Source: a virus
Taxonomy: Duplodnaviria > Heunggongvirae > Uroviricota > Caudoviricetes
Direction: 5' to 3' (one strand)
IMG/VR virus record: IMGVR_UViG_3300033070_001123
Length of the DNA: 64,000 nucleotides
Shown here in pieces: positions 1,087 to 25,376 of the stretch (position 1 is its first letter; each line of letters starts with the position of its first letter). Below the pieces are notes generated by a model, which saw nothing but the letters and a program-made list of their open reading frames with translations, was not told the origin of the DNA and ran no database searches. The position numbers and the translations under genes were made by a program.

Positions 1087-1838
1087 TTCTTTCTATCTCC
1101 ATATGTTTTAAGAACTTCGGACAAACTAATTCTTGGAAAAACCTCAACAATTCCACCCGAGGCATTAAGAATTCTTCCTTGCATCAGACTTGGGTTCATT
1201 TCAGCAAAATGATTCCAATACAAGTCATATGCAACACAGTGATTATCGACAGGTTTATCTCTGAGCAACCCTCGATTCGGTGTTGAAAATATACGATTGT
1301 TATACTCTATAGCCTTGGGTTGATTAGGAAACTGCCAGTAATACCTATTTCTTCCTTCATAACAACCATCCATACCAAGAAGAACAATAGGATCGCATCC
1401 CATAATATAAGCAATATGCATCGCTGAAGCAGCAGACGTTCTTGCTCCCATAATTGGCTTTTCTGGATCGTCCGTCATAACAACATTCTCTTTATGGTAA
1501 ATCAACCCGTTTGGACCTGAAGAGGCCCATCCTACATGATCATAAAAGAGAACTTCTTCTGGCCTAAAAATAGACTCATGACCTTGAAGCTTTTCCCTAT
1601 AAAGAAGCTTCATGCACTTGCTTTGCTTAGCCGTTACTTGCCAATAGTTCCAACTACAAACGCCATTATCATCGGTTACAAAATAATCGCAGTTAGGAAA
1701 CTTCAACAAACCAGAGTTAGACGTAAAAACAACATAATCTTTTAGGCTGTCTGTTTCAACATGCCGCAAAGAAGGGCCTGCGCCAACGATAAAACCAAGC
1801 TTACCTTTGTGTTTGTCCTTAAAGTCCCTTAGATGCAT
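1083..1838 (-). CDS. DUF115/Maf-like (sialyltransferase-type fold) glycosyltransferase
   Basis: FIVGAGPSL, VFTSN, DYFVTDD and AYIMGCDPIVLLGMDG motifs; close to the NeuA-like gene. Confidence 0.7.
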   Translation of the reverse strand: MHLRDFKDKHKGKLGFIVGAGPSLRHVETDSLKDYVVFTSNSGLLKFPNCDYFVTDDNGVCSWNYWQVTAKQSKCMKLLYREKLQGHESIFRPEEVLFYDHVGWASSGPNGLIYHKENVVMTDDPEKPIMGARTSAASAMHIAYIMGCDPIVLLGMDGCYEGRNRYYWQFPNQPKAIEYNNRIFSTPNRGLLRDKPVDNHCVAYDLYWNHFAEMNPSLMQGRILNASGGIVEVFPRISLSEVLKTYGDRKK

Positions 1839-2819
1839 TCAAAACTCCTATTACTTCTTCTTCTCTTATAAGGCGGTTCTTCGCCATATTCAAATACTCT
1901 TGTTTACCATCTATTCCAATGAACTTCCGCCCATTTTGCAAGGCTATAACACCTGTCGTACCTGAACCACAGAAAATATCAAGAACCACGCTTTTGTCAA
2001 CTTCATTTGTTTCGCAACTACAAGTTTTCAACCATCCGACAGTCTTTGTATCAGTTAGATGCCTTCCCGAATCCCTATTTGCAAAACCCTTCTTATCAAC
2101 CTTATTATGTATGCCAGGGCGAGTTGAATAGCGATTTTTCTGAACTTGTCTCTCATAAGGAGAACCGCATACTTTACAACAACCATGACCGCTAGTTGAA
2201 GCCAAAATACAAGGCTCAACCAAGCCTTGAGGAAAAACAGCAAAATGAGCGCCCTTAAAAGACGCAACAGGGACAGTCCAAACGTCCCTCTTAATTCGTC
2301 TCTTAAAAGAACCATCAGAATTACGCTCAACAGCGTTTTCTTTTATAGACTCTTGATCATAATAATAGTTTTCAGACTTACCAAGAAGAAACAAATACTC
2401 ATGCGAAGAAACAGGTCTATCTGTGACTCCTCCAGGTAAAGGATTGGGTTTGGCCCAAATTATATCGCTTCTCAAAAACCAACCGTCTTTTCTCAAAGCA
2501 AAAGCAAGCATCCAGGGAATCCCTAAAAGATCTCCCTTCTTATATCCTTCGCCGGAAGTTCTTGCGTAAGTATCGCCTATATTAAGCCATACAGTTCCGT
2601 CATTTCTAAGAACACGTTTAGCGGCAGAAAACACGCTAACAAGCTTAGCTATATATTCGTCAGGAGTCTTTTCAAGACCAATCTGATCTTGAAAGTCATA
2701 ATCTCGCAACTGATAATAAGCTAATAGGGCGGAGAAGTCACAATAGCATGAACGCTATTGGGACTCATTCCGCCCAACACTCCTTCCGTATCACCGCATA
2801 ATAATTCATAGTTTGCCAT
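1819..2819 (-). CDS. Beta-class N4-C/N6-A DNA methyltransferase, interrupted by an 8-nt stop-containing gap right after SPPY (recoded gene or pseudogene)
   Basis: 2819-2724 encodes MANYELLCGDTEGVLGGMSPNSVHAIVTSPPY, then TAG. A different frame from 2715 continues YQLRDY...WLNIGDTY...IIWAKPNP...HFAVFP...VLDIFCGSGTTG. Confidence 0.85.
2716..2723 (-). other. 8-nt coding gap TAGCTTAT (TAT take-off, TAG stop, TAT landing)
   Basis: Minus strand reads CCG CCC TAT|TAG CT TAT|TAT CAG TTG CGA GAT TAT; removing 8 nt restores SPPYYQLRDY. Confidence 0.7.
2741..2760 (-). other. mRNA hairpin just upstream of the coding gap
   Basis: CAAUAGCG-UUCA-UGCUAUUG: 7 Watson-Crick pairs, one G-U pair, tetraloop. Confidence 0.45.
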
Positions 2820-2877
2820 AAAGGGATTATCGACCATATGAAAGAAATAGTAAAATATACTGTTATACGGAGGATGT

Positions 2878-3615
2878 ATGAAGAACGAAACCTTAGCCTA
2901 TCTGGCAGGAGCAATGGACTCTGATGGTTGGTTTTCAATAAAAAAATCAGATTACAAAACAAGAGTCATCAAAGACTGTTATTATCCTACTTATCAAGCA
3001 AAAGTTGGACTAAAACAAGTAACTCCTCAAATTCCAAATCTATTACACTCCATTTTTAGAGGTAGCCTGAGAAAAGAAAAAGGACAATCAGAAAACAGCA
3101 AAGAACTCTTTGTTTTTGAATGTAACAATCAGCAAGCTATTGCTTTCTGTAAAACCTTGCTTCCTTTTCTTGTTGTAAAGAAACAACAAGCCAAAATTAT
3201 TCTAGAATTAGAAGAGACCAGAAATCGCAAGTATCTAATGCACAGTTACTGGTTCAGTCAAAAATATCCAAACTGGAAAAATGACGAACTTCTTAGTAGC
3301 CAAGAAGTTTGTCATATCTTGGGGTACAAAAATCTAAGCTCAGTATCTCAAGCAGTAAAAAACGGCCTTTTACTTTCTGTGAAAGGAGCTTATCACTTAG
3401 CCAGTAAACCTCGTATACCTAAAAAACTTGTTGAAATAGTCTTAGAAGAGCAAAGAAAAGGGAAAGACGGGAGGGTTAGAACTTCTCCACAAGAAGTTGT
3501 AGAATGGAGGGAGCGATTATACAAACAAGTAAGAGAACTAAATAAAATAGGCATTCATGGTACGGAAGTTTACTTCCGTACAGGATATCATACCAGAAAA
3601 GATGGGGCTATTTAA
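2878..3615 (+). mobile_element. Free-standing single-motif LAGLIDADG homing endonuclease with an HTH-like insertion
   Basis: LAYLAGAMDSDG, LLPFLVVKKQQA, SQEVCHILG...SVSQAVKNG; GGAGG SD; opposite strand to all neighbours. Confidence 0.85.
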
Positions 3616-3635
3616 TTTCTTTGTCTTGTCAATAT

Positions 3636-6600
3636 TTATCTTGCGCGGATCGTTCTTATTGTATTAGCAAGCCCTGATTCTTGAAGAAAACGACTCTTTT
3701 TAGTCGGCTCGAAAGATATACCGCCATTCTTGAATCGCTGCATTCTCGTATCCGCAAAAGAAACAATCAATCTTTGTTGCGCTCTTGTCATTCCAACATA
3801 ACAAAGTCTTCGCTCTTCGTCTAAGCCGTCTCTTTCCATCAAGGCTCGCTTATGAGGAAGCTGACCTTCTTCAAGACCAGGCATAAATACGACAGGGAAC
3901 TCCAAGCCCTTTGAGGCGTGAAGAGACATTAGAGAAACAGTATTCTCTTCCGTATCCTTATCAGACGAGGTTTGCAAAGCTATGTTATTCAAGTATCCAG
4001 CAATATCGTTATTTCTCTTTTCTGTATACAAAGCGCAAGCATTGATAAGTTCTTGAACGTTATCCTTCCTGTCGTCAAGTTCTTTTGTTTCGTACTTAGA
4101 CTCAAGATAACGATAGTAACCCAATCGAACAACGATATTATCCAAAACATCGCCTATTGACATACCAGTTCTGTCAAACGAAAACGCTGCATGGATTTCT
4201 TCGCATCCCTGTATAACCCTTGCTTTATCATTGCCAGAGGCAAACTCTCTAACCCGCTTCATGGCCTCCATAAGATTGATACCTTGATCGTTAGCAAAAT
4301 TCTCAATCTTACCCAAAGATACTTCTCCGATTCGGCGAGAAGGCTTATTGATGAAACGAGATAAAGCAGTTCCATCAAGAGGATTAACAATGAACCGCAA
4401 CATTGCAAGACAGTCTCGGATCTCAGAACGGTCAAAGAAGCTAAAGCCTCCAATAACTTGATAAGTTACGCCAACAGCCATAAGACCCTGCTCAATAGCT
4501 CTCGACATCGCATTAATTCTATACAGAACCGCAAAATCATGCGGCTTATAACCTTCGTTGTCAATCATATGCTTAATACGATGAGCAATCCATGCCCCTT
4601 CCTGCTCTGGCGTTGGTAGACAAATGCATTCAACAGGCTGTCCGCTTTCATTACCCGTCTTGAATTCAAGAGTTTGCTGACGGTTCTTATTGTGCTTTAT
4701 AAGCGTTGAAGCAACTTTGACAATCTCTGGCGTTGATCGATAGTTATGAGGTAGGTTAACAACCTTCGCCTTGTTGATGTTGATGAAATCTTCTATGTTC
4801 TTGTAACGAGCGCCACGCCAAGAGTAGATACCTTGGTCCGGGTCTCCAACTATAAGAACATTATTATGAGCGCCAATTAACTGAACAATTCTAAACTGAG
4901 CAAAGTTTGTATCTTGAGCTTCGTCAACCTGAATAAAATCAAAACGAGTTTGTAACTTACAAAGAACAGAACCGTCCTTTTCAAGGAGTCTAATAGTTTC
5001 AGACAACAAACCACTGAAATCTATCTGGTTGTTCTTTCTCATACGAAGAACATACTCTCTGCAAACCTCGCCTTCGGCTTCGTGCTTGAAATGAGAAGGA
5101 AAATCGTCCTCAGAAATAAGGTTTTCTCGAAGTTCATTAGCCTTCCAAATAAGGCTCTTTATTTGCTGCGCATTCCATTCATGGCCCGCTTGTCTAGCGC
5201 ACTGAGCCATTAGGCCTTCTTGATCTTCGTCGTCAAGAATAGTGGTATTGAGTCCATAACCGATATAGGAGCCATACTTCCTGATAATGGTTGCGCAAAG
5301 AGCGTGGAAAGTGCTTATATAGACTTCTTGACCTTGCGTTTCGCCAAGCTGCTTACAAACTCTTTCCTTCATTTCGTTTGCAGCTTTATTGGTGAATGTT
5401 ATGCAAAGAATAGAACGGGGGCTATAACCCTTCTCAATAAGGCGAATAACTCTTTCAACAATAACACGAGTATTATGGTTTACAAACCCATTGGCAACAA
5501 AATTATGTGAACCCTCAATAAAATAGTCATAAACATGCTGAGGCCCACCATCAACCACAGATTCAACCGGACTAAATCCAAAATTGTCTACCAAAAACCT
5601 CAATTGATCCAAAGCAATACAATTAATATTGGCAACTTCACAAGCAGATATTAGTTTATAAGCTGCCGTTTCAGTTAAACCTCGTAATACAGCTTTGGAT
5701 TTTGAACAATATCTTATGAGCCTAACAAAATCTCCGTTGATATCATAAAAATTAGAAGTTTTAGGATCGTAGTTTTCCGGTTTTTGTAATTTTACTTTAC
5801 TATAAATTTGAGAAACCAAATAATCTGCAAAAGGTATAATTCTGTTGGGATTAGAAATCTTGCAACAAATTTCTCTGAGTTGTTTCTGTTTTCTAGGAAG
5901 TCTAAAACCTATATTCTTCTCAAATCTACGCATATCTTCGCCTGAAATATGTAAACGATAATATAAAGATCCATCAACTTCTTTTGTTTTTAGCGAAGAA
6001 AACACTCCAAATCTCAAAAGAATAGTTTGAAGCTGCTCTATAAGCTTTTGAGAACAAAGACATATTTCAACATTATTTCCGCTAACATACCCATCAGTAT
6101 CAAACAGCCCTTGTATAAAGCTGCCTATCTCTCCTCTTCCAGCAGATAGCATTTGCGATGTCATCCTCTTATCGCAAGCCAAACTAAAAAAATCACCAAA
6201 TATATCTTGTAATTGCTTTTTTATATCCTTAGAACAGATAACTAAAGATCTAAGACCGATTCGCCTCTTATCATAGTAAACATTTACAGTATAATCAAAT
6301 CGTTCTCTAAAGAACTGAGTAAACGAGGCTTGAATTTCATCATCATTAGTTGTTATGCTAAGTTCATTTTTTCTTACCAAATAACCATCACCAAACATCA
6401 ACCCAAGAACATACCAAACATCATAAAATTTTGGATGGCGTATTATAGGATTATCAGATTGCTTCTCCATTTGAAGAACCGCAATATCCCCAACTTGGAT
6501 ATCCTCAAGCTTTTTCCATTCTAGTTCACATTTCCTATTTAATATAGCAATAGGATGATGGTGAGTTCCCTGGATAGAATAACCTTGTTCAGTTGTAACT

Positions 6601-6896
6601 TTAAGAGTGGATTTAATGCCGGAGTCAACAAAATTTGTGATTTTTATAGAACGATAATTACTTTGATTCAAAGATTCTGAATCAAACGCTCTAATCCAAT
6701 CAACCTTGCTATTATCAATAGTAGAAAATCCGTCGTCAAGAACAACGATAGAATCTCCAGTTATGCACTTCCCAGAGCCAGGGCAGGCGCATACAAAACA
6801 CGGTCCCATGACATGCTCAACGGCTTCTAGCTGTTCAGGGTTTAGGCTGATTTTTCTTCGAACACCCTCCGCAGGGACGCTTTGATTGCTGCTCAT
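3636..6896 (-). CDS. uvrD: UvrD/PcrA SF1 DNA helicase containing an intein
   Basis: LNPEQ, ACPGSGK/T, ITFTNKAA, STFHAL, VDEAQDTN, VGDPDQGIYSWRGA, NYRS, HASKGLEF, EERRLCYVGMTRA. Confidence 0.95.
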   Translation of the reverse strand: MSSNQSVPAEGVRRKISLNPEQLEAVEHVMGPCFVCACPGSGKCITGDSIVVLDDGFSTIDNSKVDWIRAFDSESLNQSNYRSIKITNFVDSGIKSTLKVTTEQGYSIQGTHHHPIAILNRKCELEWKKLEDIQVGDIAVLQMEKQSDNPIIRHPKFYDVWYVLGLMFGDGYLVRKNELSITTNDDEIQASFTQFFRERFDYTVNVYYDKRRIGLRSLVICSKDIKKQLQDIFGDFFSLACDKRMTSQMLSAGRGEIGSFIQGLFDTDGYVSGNNVEICLCSQKLIEQLQTILLRFGVFSSLKTKEVDGSLYYRLHISGEDMRRFEKNIGFRLPRKQKQLREICCKISNPNRIIPFADYLVSQIYSKVKLQKPENYDPKTSNFYDINGDFVRLIRYCSKSKAVLRGLTETAAYKLISACEVANINCIALDQLRFLVDNFGFSPVESVVDGGPQHVYDYFIEGSHNFVANGFVNHNTRVIVERVIRLIEKGYSPRSILCITFTNKAANEMKERVCKQLGETQGQEVYISTFHALCATIIRKYGSYIGYGLNTTILDDEDQEGLMAQCARQAGHEWNAQQIKSLIWKANELRENLISEDDFPSHFKHEAEGEVCREYVLRMRKNNQIDFSGLLSETIRLLEKDGSVLCKLQTRFDFIQVDEAQDTNFAQFRIVQLIGAHNNVLIVGDPDQGIYSWRGARYKNIEDFININKAKVVNLPHNYRSTPEIVKVASTLIKHNKNRQQTLEFKTGNESGQPVECICLPTPEQEGAWIAHRIKHMIDNEGYKPHDFAVLYRINAMSRAIEQGLMAVGVTYQVIGGFSFFDRSEIRDCLAMLRFIVNPLDGTALSRFINKPSRRIGEVSLGKIENFANDQGINLMEAMKRVREFASGNDKARVIQGCEEIHAAFSFDRTGMSIGDVLDNIVVRLGYYRYLESKYETKELDDRKDNVQELINACALYTEKRNNDIAGYLNNIALQTSSDKDTEENTVSLMSLHASKGLEFPVVFMPGLEEGQLPHKRALMERDGLDEERRLCYVGMTRAQQRLIVSFADTRMQRFKNGGISFEPTKKSRFLQESGLANTIRTIRAR
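5472..6767 (-). mobile_element. Intein (432 aa) with LAGLIDADG endonuclease, in the UvrD Walker A motif
   Basis: GSGK|CITGDS...GTHHHP...LGLMFGDG...FIQGLFDTDG...HNFVANGFVNHN|T. Confidence 0.95.
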
Positions 6897-21485: not shown

Positions 21486-22256
21486 ATGAAAAAGATAATC
21501 ATATCAAAGCGTGAATTAGAAAAAACAATAAATAGTAGTAACTCTAGAAAAGAAATTTTAGACAAACTTCAAATATCTCAATCTACATTTTACAGCATAT
21601 GCTCTTCATATAAAATATCGGCAATAAAACCTAAATTTAACGAAAACTATTTCGAGAATATAGATTCAGAAAGAAAAGCTTATTGGCTTGGTTTTATTTT
21701 TGCAGATGGATGTGTTTCGGAAATAAAGGGTTGTTCAAAATTCTTATCCATTTGCCTATCAAGAAAAGACAGAGAACATCTTGAACTATTTAGTAAAGAT
21801 ATAAACTCTTCTATCAAAATACATGATTATCATAATAAGCACGATTTTTCTTATATTCGTTTGTATTCAGATAAGATAAGTAATGATTTAATCAAACTTG
21901 GATGCACTCCGAGAAAATCACTAATACTCCAATACCCAATCCTAAATAAGAATATGGATAGACACTTTATAAGAGGATATTTCGACGGAGATGGATGCGT
22001 TTCACATCATAATAACGGAGCAAGGGGAGGGCCAAGATTATCTATTATAGGAAGTGAAATATTTTTAGATGAAATGCAAAACAAATTACATGAACATTTA
22101 GGAATAAAAAAGAGACCAAAACTATTTAGATCAGGAAGTGCCTACAAATATGATAGTACCGCATACAGTTCTGTAAAAACAATAATGGATTGGCTATACA
22201 AAGATTCCAACGTCTTCCTGAGCAGAAAAAGAAATTCTTATTTATCTGCTATTTAA
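21486..22256 (+). mobile_element. Free-standing double-motif LAGLIDADG homing endonuclease with N-terminal HTH
   Basis: KAYWLGFIFADG and HFIRGYFDGDG; AT-rich; opposite strand to neighbours. Confidence 0.9.
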
Positions 22257-23766: not shown

Positions 23767-24615
23767 TTAACTAATCCTGTTTTCCTCAACAGTATTTACT
23801 GTCTTTTTATTTTCCTCAATTCTCTTGGATCTTGGAATATAATCGTCAAATATATTAGAAACAGCAGATATCCTTTGTCTTGCGTAATTAACATCGGATT
23901 CAGAATTGTCTATACCAATGTAGTTTCTGCCAAGAACTTTAGCCATCAAGCCTGTAGTACCAGTTCCCATAAACGGATCAACAACTGTATTCCCTCTGTA
24001 AGAAAATAGCTTAATGACCCTTCTTGCTAACTCTTCAGGAAATGGCGCTGGATGACCATTTAGATTCTGAGTTTCTGGTTGAATAAACCATGTTGAAAAA
24101 GTCCAGTTTTGGAACTCTTCATTTGTCATATCAGAAAGCTCAGGGTCTCCTTTGAGTTTCCAACTACCTTTAGACCAAACCATAATATACTCATGATTTC
24201 GTCTAATAGCAGGATTAGAGCAAGACATATAAGAACCAAAAGCAGTTGCCCTGCCTGACCAGTTCTGCTTATACCAGCAAATTTCGGTTCTATATTTAAG
24301 ACCTACCTCTCTACCTACATTGATAAGGTCACCCGCAATGGGTCTCATATATTCGTCGTCGTCTTGCCTATTTCTAACAGAATCAATATTGATTACAAGT
24401 CGGCCTCCGTCAACAAGTATTCTCTTGCATTCAATAAATATCTTCTTTAGCCAATCAACATATACCTTATATGGATCGTCGTCATTACGATTACGATACC
24501 CTTCAAGCTGAATATTATAAGGCGGAGAAGATAAAACAAGATGAACACTCTCGTCGGGTATCTTTTTGAGACCGTCCAAAACATCGTCCAACATAATTGT
24601 GTTCAACAAGCTCAT
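23767..24615 (-). CDS. Beta-class N4-C/N6-A DNA methyltransferase
   Basis: LVLSSPPYN, HEYI, HPAPFPEEL, VVDPFMGTGTT. Confidence 0.92.
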   Translation of the reverse strand: MSLLNTIMLDDVLDGLKKIPDESVHLVLSSPPYNIQLEGYRNRNDDDPYKVYVDWLKKIFIECKRILVDGGRLVINIDSVRNRQDDDEYMRPIAGDLINVGREVGLKYRTEICWYKQNWSGRATAFGSYMSCSNPAIRRNHEYIMVWSKGSWKLKGDPELSDMTNEEFQNWTFSTWFIQPETQNLNGHPAPFPEELARRVIKLFSYRGNTVVDPFMGTGTTGLMAKVLGRNYIGIDNSESDVNYARQRISAVSNIFDDYIPRSKRIEENKKTVNTVEENRIS

Positions 24616-24617
24616 GA

Positions 24618-25376
24618 TTACTCCGAGAATATATCTTTTACTACATCTAGTCTTTGCTTTGCTAAAGCAATCGCTTTAGGGTTCTTATCGCTTCCAACAG
24701 GGAATCTTTTAGCCGCTAACGCTGCTTCTAAAAAACTACCGCTACCGCAAAATGGGTCCAAAACTCTATCCCCAGGATTGCTCCATATAGTAACTACTCT
24801 CTCCATGAGCTTAAGAGGCTTTTGAGTTGCATACCCGTTCTTTTCCGGCTCATTCCTGCATATTGCAGGAATATCAACCCACCAATCCTCAAGAAGCTTA
24901 CCTCTCTGTTCGTAATGTTCCCAAGGAATTTTTTCTTTCGACCAAGCAGCAGCCCCTCCGACATTCATCTTGGTTTTATATGGAACCCTGGGTTGGTTAA
25001 ATACATACTCTCCGAGTCCATACCATAGGATCGTATGATGCTTCCTAGGGAGCCATCTCTTAGCGCTTGCAGGATTACTAAAGCCCCATATAATTTCGTT
25101 CCTGAAGCTATCCCTTCCAAAAATCTTATCCATTGAAACTTTGACATAATGTATCGCCTTGTAATCCATATGAACTACAATATTCGAATCTTTCTTCATT
25201 AGCTTCTTAATGGCATTCAGCCTGTCAGCCATATAAGAAACAAACTCGTCGAAAGACGAACCAACTCCATAGTATTCGTCTTCAGATTCACAGCTATAAG
25301 GCGGATCTAGATACACTAAATCAACAGGCTCCGTTACCAGGCCAAGACAGTCAGTATTATGAAGTTCATATTTCAT
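24618..25376 (-). CDS. Beta-class N6-adenine DNA methyltransferase
   Basis: DLVYLDPPY, FRNEIIW, YATQKPLKL, VLDPFCGSGS. Confidence 0.92.
   Translation of the reverse strand: MKYELHNTDCLGLVTEPVDLVYLDPPYSCESEDEYYGVGSSFDEFVSYMADRLNAIKKLMKKDSNIVVHMDYKAIHYVKVSMDKIFGRDSFRNEIIWGFSNPASAKRWLPRKHHTILWYGLGEYVFNQPRVPYKTKMNVGGAAAWSKEKIPWEHYEQRGKLLEDWWVDIPAICRNEPEKNGYATQKPLKLMERVVTIWSNPGDRVLDPFCGSGSFLEAALAAKRFPVGSDKNPKAIALAKQRLDVVKDIFSE

Follow-up and report, generated by a model that had tools for sequence, protein, structure and literature searches.

Probable Short Bypassing of a Stop Codon in a Phage Methylase Gene

A DNA methylase gene in the 64,000-nt stretch of phage DNA analyzed here (the window) is interrupted by 8 nt within the codons for its catalytic motif, and sequence comparisons lead us to conclude, with a probability of roughly 0.8, that the interruption is crossed by programmed short translational bypassing and belongs to a homing-endonuclease cassette. 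The gene lies on the minus strand and starts with a replacement N-terminus of 32 codons (2724-2819; ATG at 2819-2817). Its codons 29-32 encode SPPY, which we take to be catalytic motif IV of the enzyme. The last of these codons, TAT (2724-2726), is the putative take-off codon. It is followed by an 8-nt coding gap, TAG CT TAT (2716-2723), whose TAG stop codon (2723-2721) would occupy the A site at take-off and whose last triplet (TAT, 2718-2716) would be the matched landing codon. The resumed frame (1819-2715) differs from that of the N-terminus, begins with TAT CAG TTG CGA GAT TAT (YQLRDY), contains SAM-binding motif I (DIFCGSGT), and stays open until a stop at 1819; it matches PF01555 with an E-value of 1e-37. 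From the domain match and its solved relatives, the nearest being M.CcrMI, the TTHA0409-type structure 2zie, M.PvuII, and M.RsrI, the enzyme is a DNA methyltransferase of the β-class N6-adenine/N4-cytosine type. Joined, the N-terminus and the resumed frame equal the product of the intact allele (L178/P0102), from which the gap is missing. Because the SPPY codons precede the break, the 296-aa ORF called in the window is devoid of the catalytic motif.

A preliminary description of this locus had proposed an 8-nt hop from one TAT to the next between two otherwise intact gene halves. All break coordinates (the ATG, the TAT of SPPY, the TAG, the CT, the second TAT, and the resumed frame) were re-read and are correct. 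The locus combines two discontinuous frames for one conserved protein with an A-site stop at take-off, both of which are features by which bypassing is recognized. An assembly error, which had also been considered, can be dismissed since the insert is found in contigs from three studies (run X1, which is probably the source run; run X4; and record 10 of X11); the X4 contig, representing a 2019 strain from a separate study, differs from the window by 63 substitutions and no gaps over 2101 nt.

In the mechanism we propose, peptidyl-tRNA(Tyr) would reside on UAU with UAG in the A site, causing the ribosome to pause. A 19-bp hairpin would then form on the exiting mRNA, with its 3' arm extending to the take-off codon, and the message would be pulled through. 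The tRNA would re-pair on the UAU located 8 nt downstream and decoding would resume, yielding one protein with a native SPPY-YQLRDY sequence. The Pro-Pro ahead of the take-off codon may slow termination, as prolines can do.

The insert could in principle be removed at the RNA level, by a micro-intron or by transcriptional slippage, with ordinary translation to follow, and a hairpin beside a short insert could well be a processing signal. We consider this very improbable. The gaps found in related genes (3-11 nt, see below) share no ends except the stop codon and, to our knowledge, such gaps match no known splicing chemistry. There is no homopolymer on which slippage could occur, and the matching of take-off and landing codons is a signature of translation. 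Contigs from two RNA libraries, which may be DNA-derived, all retain the insert, with none carrying an 8-nt deletion. We rejected reassignment of TAG or a suppressor tRNA, as TAG terminates several genes in the window and its readthrough fails to restore the frame. ARAGORN at its default threshold found no tRNA in the 101-kb fragment of the larger genome that contains the window; a relaxed threshold returned 13 hits, which we treated as noise.

Insert-bearing Orthologues Are under Purifying Selection

We compared the window with syntenic orthologues identified by protein searches. Three of them (L179, L238, and L239; 60-63% amino acid identity) carry an insert and have no endonuclease. The gap is 8 nt long in L179 (TAGCTTAC, reading TAT TAG CT TAC TTT) and 7 nt long in L238 and L239 (TAGTTAC, reading TAT TAG T TAC TTY), and at both lengths the stop is retained and the landing codon specifies Tyr. 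As the required change of frame is not the same for a 7-nt as for an 8-nt gap (+1 in some orthologues and +2 in others), no single fixed frameshift can serve. We also considered a 5-nt gap, which would add one more Tyr, and rejected it, as the orthologues show TAC followed by Phe, similar to the SPPY-F-Q of intact genes. Exact-pattern scans of viral contigs and of metagenome contigs with the window junction gave no match. The called N-terminus of P0113 (LLSLLHRIRYFQLRDY) implies a further orthologue with a 7-nt gap (TAG, a purine, TAY).

In the downstream halves of L179, L238, and L239, synonymous sites are saturated (pS 0.79-0.85), pN is 0.16-0.18, and no further break is found; dN/dS of their N-termini is ~0.15 where it can be estimated. 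These values indicate that purifying selection operated on both halves while the insert was present. They bear directly on a repair scar or pseudogene, an origin which the preliminary description had left open and by which imperfect repair after cutting would have killed a dispensable methylase and protected the site. The insert is indeed an imperfect duplication as reported (6/8 match), 7 of the 72 inserts in the family described below consist of an exact tandem duplication of 4 nt (ACTG or ATTG), and two further N6_N4 methylases of the phage are intact. A scar is nevertheless very unlikely, given orthologues in which both frames are intact at saturated synonymous sites and the hairpin covaries. 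Moreover, random scars would not always generate a stop after the last conserved codon together with a matching triplet, and inserts that break the frame but lack a stop were encountered just twice (L100 and L137). Duplication may thus be a route by which inserts originate rather than their present nature.

A Covarying Hairpin Precedes the Take-off Codon

A stem-loop of 19 bp (2727-2775, minus strand) ends one base before the take-off codon. The preliminary description had recognized this UUCA hairpin correctly and underestimated its size. The UUCA tetraloop (2752-2749) starts 26 nt before the take-off codon, and the structure is more stable than expected, with z-scores of -3.2 relative to shuffled versions of the 141-nt region and of about -5 to -6 relative to synonymously recoded sequences. 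It is retained in 4/4 insert-bearing orthologues with 91% of the cells paired. In a covariation test limited to four sequences and to the structure taken from the window, eight pairs are changed on both sides, compared with at most one in slid controls. The four intact orthologues L178, L001, L003, and L004 do not have the hairpin.

Upstream hairpins are also enriched across the larger family, with a mean z-score of -1.9 for broken and -0.4 for intact genes (p = 2e-5; the p-values for the family are optimistic, because its members are not phylogenetically independent). A z-score below -1.5 is found in 37/72 broken and 11/54 intact genes, and about half of the broken genes lack a clear hairpin. 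In each of four take-off classes, the median position of the loop center relative to take-off is -22 to -25 nt. In T4 gene 60, a 5' stem-loop is spaced 26 nt from the take-off codon, and pairing of the exiting mRNA has been proposed to exert a forward drive on the ribosome (bioRxiv 10.1101/2024.12.09.627546). By analogy, the window hairpin may drive the hop.

The Interruption Is Part of a Homing Cassette

Next to the methylase gene and divergent from it lies a free-standing, single-motif LAGLIDADG homing endonuclease gene of 245 codons (2878-3615, plus strand), with a GGAGG ribosome-binding site at 2869-2873 (plus strand). The two start codons are 58 nt apart, as previously stated. Searched alone, the gene matches the Pfam LAGLIDADG family with an E-value of 0.004, and its family profile matches I-MsoI, I-CvuI, and I-CreI. 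Both Asp residues of the motif YLAGAMDSDG are invariant among 24 homologues. A scan of viral contigs with the window endonuclease returned a single weak match. We rejected a group I intron or an intein, as the endonuclease is encoded outside the coding frame on the opposite strand and the interruption measures 8 nt.

The joint seen in runs X11/X12 and a BLAST comparison with L178 delimit a mobile cassette (2716-3635) that comprises the endonuclease, the replacement N-terminus, the hairpin, and the gap. It stands in place of ~131 nt of the empty allele, from the UvrD stop to the SPPY codons. Runs X11/X12 contain an allele in which 2718 is joined to 3635 via 131 different letters, and L178, which is ~90% identical on either side, is endonuclease-free and reads an uninterrupted CCG TAT TAT CAG. 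The 32-codon N-terminus of the window shares 45% amino acid identity with L178, compared with 95% for the C-terminal part, and 55-65% with the insert-bearing L179, L238, and L239. Being closer to a distant insert-bearing clade than to L178, this foreign, donor-derived N-terminus belongs to the cassette. The window and strain L165 show no difference over 1141 nt (2531-3671) and 63 differences in the remaining 960 nt compared (~6.5% of sites). With an empty allele in existence, this tract looks like the result of recent homing with co-conversion of the flanks, as judged from the single strain pair compared. The dN/dS of the resumed part is ~0.06 against both L165 and L178; the value for the window and L165 reflects the history of the recipients before homing, not selection in the presence of the insert.

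All eight members of the window endonuclease family for which context is available adjoin an N6_N4 methylase gene at its 5' end. The preliminary description expected the methylase of endonuclease-bearing relatives to be interrupted; this holds for six of these eight genes and fails for two (L170 and L177), and the nuclease can therefore coexist with a gene that has no insert. Of the methylase genes, 29/60 broken and 0/49 intact ones are preceded by a LAGLIDADG or HNH gene upstream, a count that leaves out loci retrieved through the endonuclease and uses an HNH profile seeded from the broken set. The original N-terminus is preserved as an orphan upstream of 15/60 broken genes. The proposed link between break and endonuclease is thus supported by a homing signature and by co-occurrence, and the notion of a LAGLIDADG-linked cassette stands; what had been missed is that the N-terminus travels with it and that the gene belongs to a large family.

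Taken together, a selfish jumbo-phage cassette would bring a LAGLIDADG endonuclease, a new methylase N-terminus, and a short non-coding insert, the latter placed within the conserved SPPY codons, where the enzyme presumably cuts. A protective effect of the insert against the nuclease is plausible. The insert has also survived for long where no nuclease is present, which would be compatible with simple persistence or a regulatory function. The seven exact tandem duplications have the size of a LAGLIDADG overhang, which suggests that repair of the cut may have produced some inserts as scars, which were then retained because they could be hopped.

Seventy-two Phage Methylase Genes Share the Arrangement

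Through pattern scans and the neighbors of endonuclease homologues, we assembled a non-redundant set of 72 phage methylase genes that carry 3-11 additional nt in SPPY-x-x-LRDY. Three of the broken genes were contributed by a scan of genome contigs, in which most matches were unrelated. The take-off residue is Tyr in 40, Trp in 26, Leu in 4, and Pro in 2 genes. A stop directly follows the take-off codon in 72/72, including the 32 Trp, Leu, and Pro cases in which the search pattern did not demand it, and the gaps occupy all three frames (37/20/15). Among the 31 distinct gaps of at least 6 nt, 29 have a landing triplet that shares two or three positions with the take-off codon (5.0 expected), and in 16 the two are identical (0.8 expected). 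Trp take-off codons land on TGG, TGC, TGA, AGG, and once on AGT; Tyr codons land on TAY, GAY, AAY, TAG, and once on TTC. Matches are poor in a few cases (TGG to AGT, CCG to CTG). An SD-like 4-mer is found within 20 nt upstream of take-off in 0/72 genes. A complete downstream frame with motif I is present in 50/56 broken and 53/54 intact genes; some of the six broken genes without one are therefore decaying or further interrupted.

At eight loci the landing triplet is a stop codon of the resumed frame (for example TGG TAAA TGA), which excludes simple frameshifting. Stop readthrough mixed with +1/-1 frameshifting, adding one or a few residues after SPPY, could suit the 3-nt (TAG) and 4-nt (TGAC, a weak, prfB-like stop context) inserts that make up 29/72 of the family. 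As a general account it is extremely unlikely: it would encounter a second stop at the eight loci, readthrough alone leaves the frame of the window unrestored, the shift required varies among the orthologues, the 101-kb fragment has no detected tRNA gene, and in L172 and L175 the extra residues would separate SPP from Y in the catalytic motif. In these two genes (minus strand, ~3890-3910 and ~2860-2880, respectively) the hop would start from the second Pro of SPPY (CCT TGA CCT and CCG TGA CTG).

Alternatively, a 32-aa SPPY peptide and a separately started C-terminal protein may assemble into a split enzyme. An in-frame TTG is located 11 nt past the stop (at 2709), with an ATG in L179, L238, and L239, and complementing halves are known from endonuclease-split genes (phage Aeh1 NrdA and the T4 gene 39/60 split). 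However, ATG, GTG, or TTG occupies the restart position in only 14/72 broken genes, TTG/ATG at this position is commoner in intact ones (22/54), the restart would lack a Shine-Dalgarno sequence, no interaction tails have been added, and the conserved landing codon would be left unexplained. We thus regard a split enzyme as quite unlikely.

The 8-nt hop is strongly supported by the orthologues, the covarying hairpin, and the 72-member family, all of them lines of evidence drawn from comparative sequence analysis. For the family as a whole, it is reasonably likely that programmed stop-hops of 3-11 nt are natural and widespread, with unrelated LAGLIDADG and HNH nucleases repeatedly protecting an SPPY-codon target by means of micro-inserts. 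Skipping would then need a stop, a near-cognate landing triplet, a 5' driver hairpin, and ordinary bacterial ribosomes.

Nine further loci (L088, L111, L125, L134, L190, L202, L213, L232, and L298) contain an in-frame insertion of one Gly (SPPYWGGLRDY), possibly an alternative, hop-free escape from cleavage. In five broken methylases (L107, L183, L121, L192, and L171) the downstream frame is 700-1150 aa long, which points to inteins or fused domains within these genes. None of four records from cultured phages (Ailee, Keitabear, JA11, and Lagaffe) provides a stop-hop example; the methylase is annotated as a single gene in Dickeya JA11 and Faecalibacterium Lagaffe. In the Gordonia phages Ailee (L365) and Keitabear (L368), a distantly related LAGLIDADG gene is located within a C5 cytosine methylase gene, which is annotated as a joined CDS in the former and as two genes in the latter.

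Comparison with Known Bypassing Systems

For bacterial systems, the known natural cases of bypassing are essentially T4 gene 60 with its homologues and a small number of terminases of Streptomyces phages. A mobile cassette with bypassing has been described for T4 mobA/gene 60 (Bonocora et al. 2011, as cited in PMC5009743; bioRxiv 10.1101/2022.08.31.505936). It is functionally similar to the window cassette and has no evident sequence relationship with it. The T4 target is the topoisomerase II large-subunit gene rather than an N6/N4 DNA methylase, and the nuclease next to the window methylase is a LAGLIDADG enzyme, with HNH enzymes beside other family members. Its gap of ~50 nt compares with 3-11 nt in the methylases (8 in the window). 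A 5' stem-loop before take-off is common to both. In contrast, the stem-loop at the take-off/A site and the mini Shine-Dalgarno within the gap of gene 60 have no counterpart in the 8-nt gap, and the methylase family uses four different take-off tRNAs and codon positions. The replacement N-terminus yields a whole enzyme here and half of a split one in T4.

The Streptomyces phage phiHau3 terminase resembles the window in that a short insert in a phage gene (7-10 nt) is bypassed with the help of flanking structure. There the trigger is the hungry codon UUA instead of a stop; the accessible text of that study proposes a regulatory role, counts three known genes, and reports no endonuclease link (PMC10732093). 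In artificial E. coli constructs, synthetic stop-hops span a few nt between matched codons around a stop (Weiss et al. 1987, reviewed in PMC5009743). L152 (TGG TAG TGG), L154, and L172 have exactly this form, with the difference that the methylase family would be natural, widespread, and hairpin-aided. According to a 2016 review, no natural in-frame stop hopping was known at that time (PMC5009743); short natural stop-hops had been anticipated. The same review describes the byps of Magnusiomyces capitatus mitochondria as many inserts, often with landing matches at two out of three positions. Numerous bypassed inserts and imperfect landing matches are shared with the methylase family, whereas byps depend on mitochondrial ribosomes and unused A-site codons independently of mRNA context, and the methylases on bacterial-type ribosomes and stop codons. 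In the literature searched, which left out most subscription journals, we found no published description of a methylase stop-hop system.

To these systems the locus adds empty, freshly homed, and endonuclease-free alleles, an orthologue gap of variable length, and a covarying hairpin. Its value as a model lies in the occurrence, within one phage clade, of filled and empty alleles as well as insert alleles that have no endonuclease. With ~70 natural variants differing in tRNA, gap length, and landing mismatches, the minimal signals for bypassing, the rules of landing-site pairing, and hairpin-driven forward motion of the ribosome would become directly testable. If our interpretation is correct, the arrangement would amount to a bypass module that is minimal and transferable, and selfish nucleases would have a third means, in addition to introns and inteins, of sparing a host gene. 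Gene callers truncate such methylases, with loss of the catalytic motif, and some apparent phage pseudogenes are probably functional.

Genomic Setting

The 101-kb fragment on which the window sits derives from a large (jumbo) phage detected in activated sludge and wastewater runs; contigs of close relatives span 170-490 kb. The methylase gene is flanked by genes for a UvrD helicase and an MptE-like protein. The UvrD helicase (3636-6896, minus strand) comprises 1086 aa including a LAGLIDADG intein, a second mobile element that directly adjoins the cassette; its counterpart in L178 has 654 aa and is intein-free. A GTCGATA motif (2834-2828, minus strand) is conserved immediately upstream of the methylase start in L178, L179, L238, L239, L001, and L003, is present in the cassette as well, and occurs elsewhere in the window at mostly non-intergenic positions. 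It may represent a phage promoter or regulatory site. A promoter scan returned 4 matches versus 3.3 expected, which is chance level. The two additional N6_N4 methylase genes (23767-24615 and 24618-25376, both minus strand) are intact at their catalytic motifs (SPPYN and DPPYS). A 256-aa ORF on the plus strand (21486-22256) is found among minus-strand genes, in a window that otherwise contains few plus-strand ORFs.
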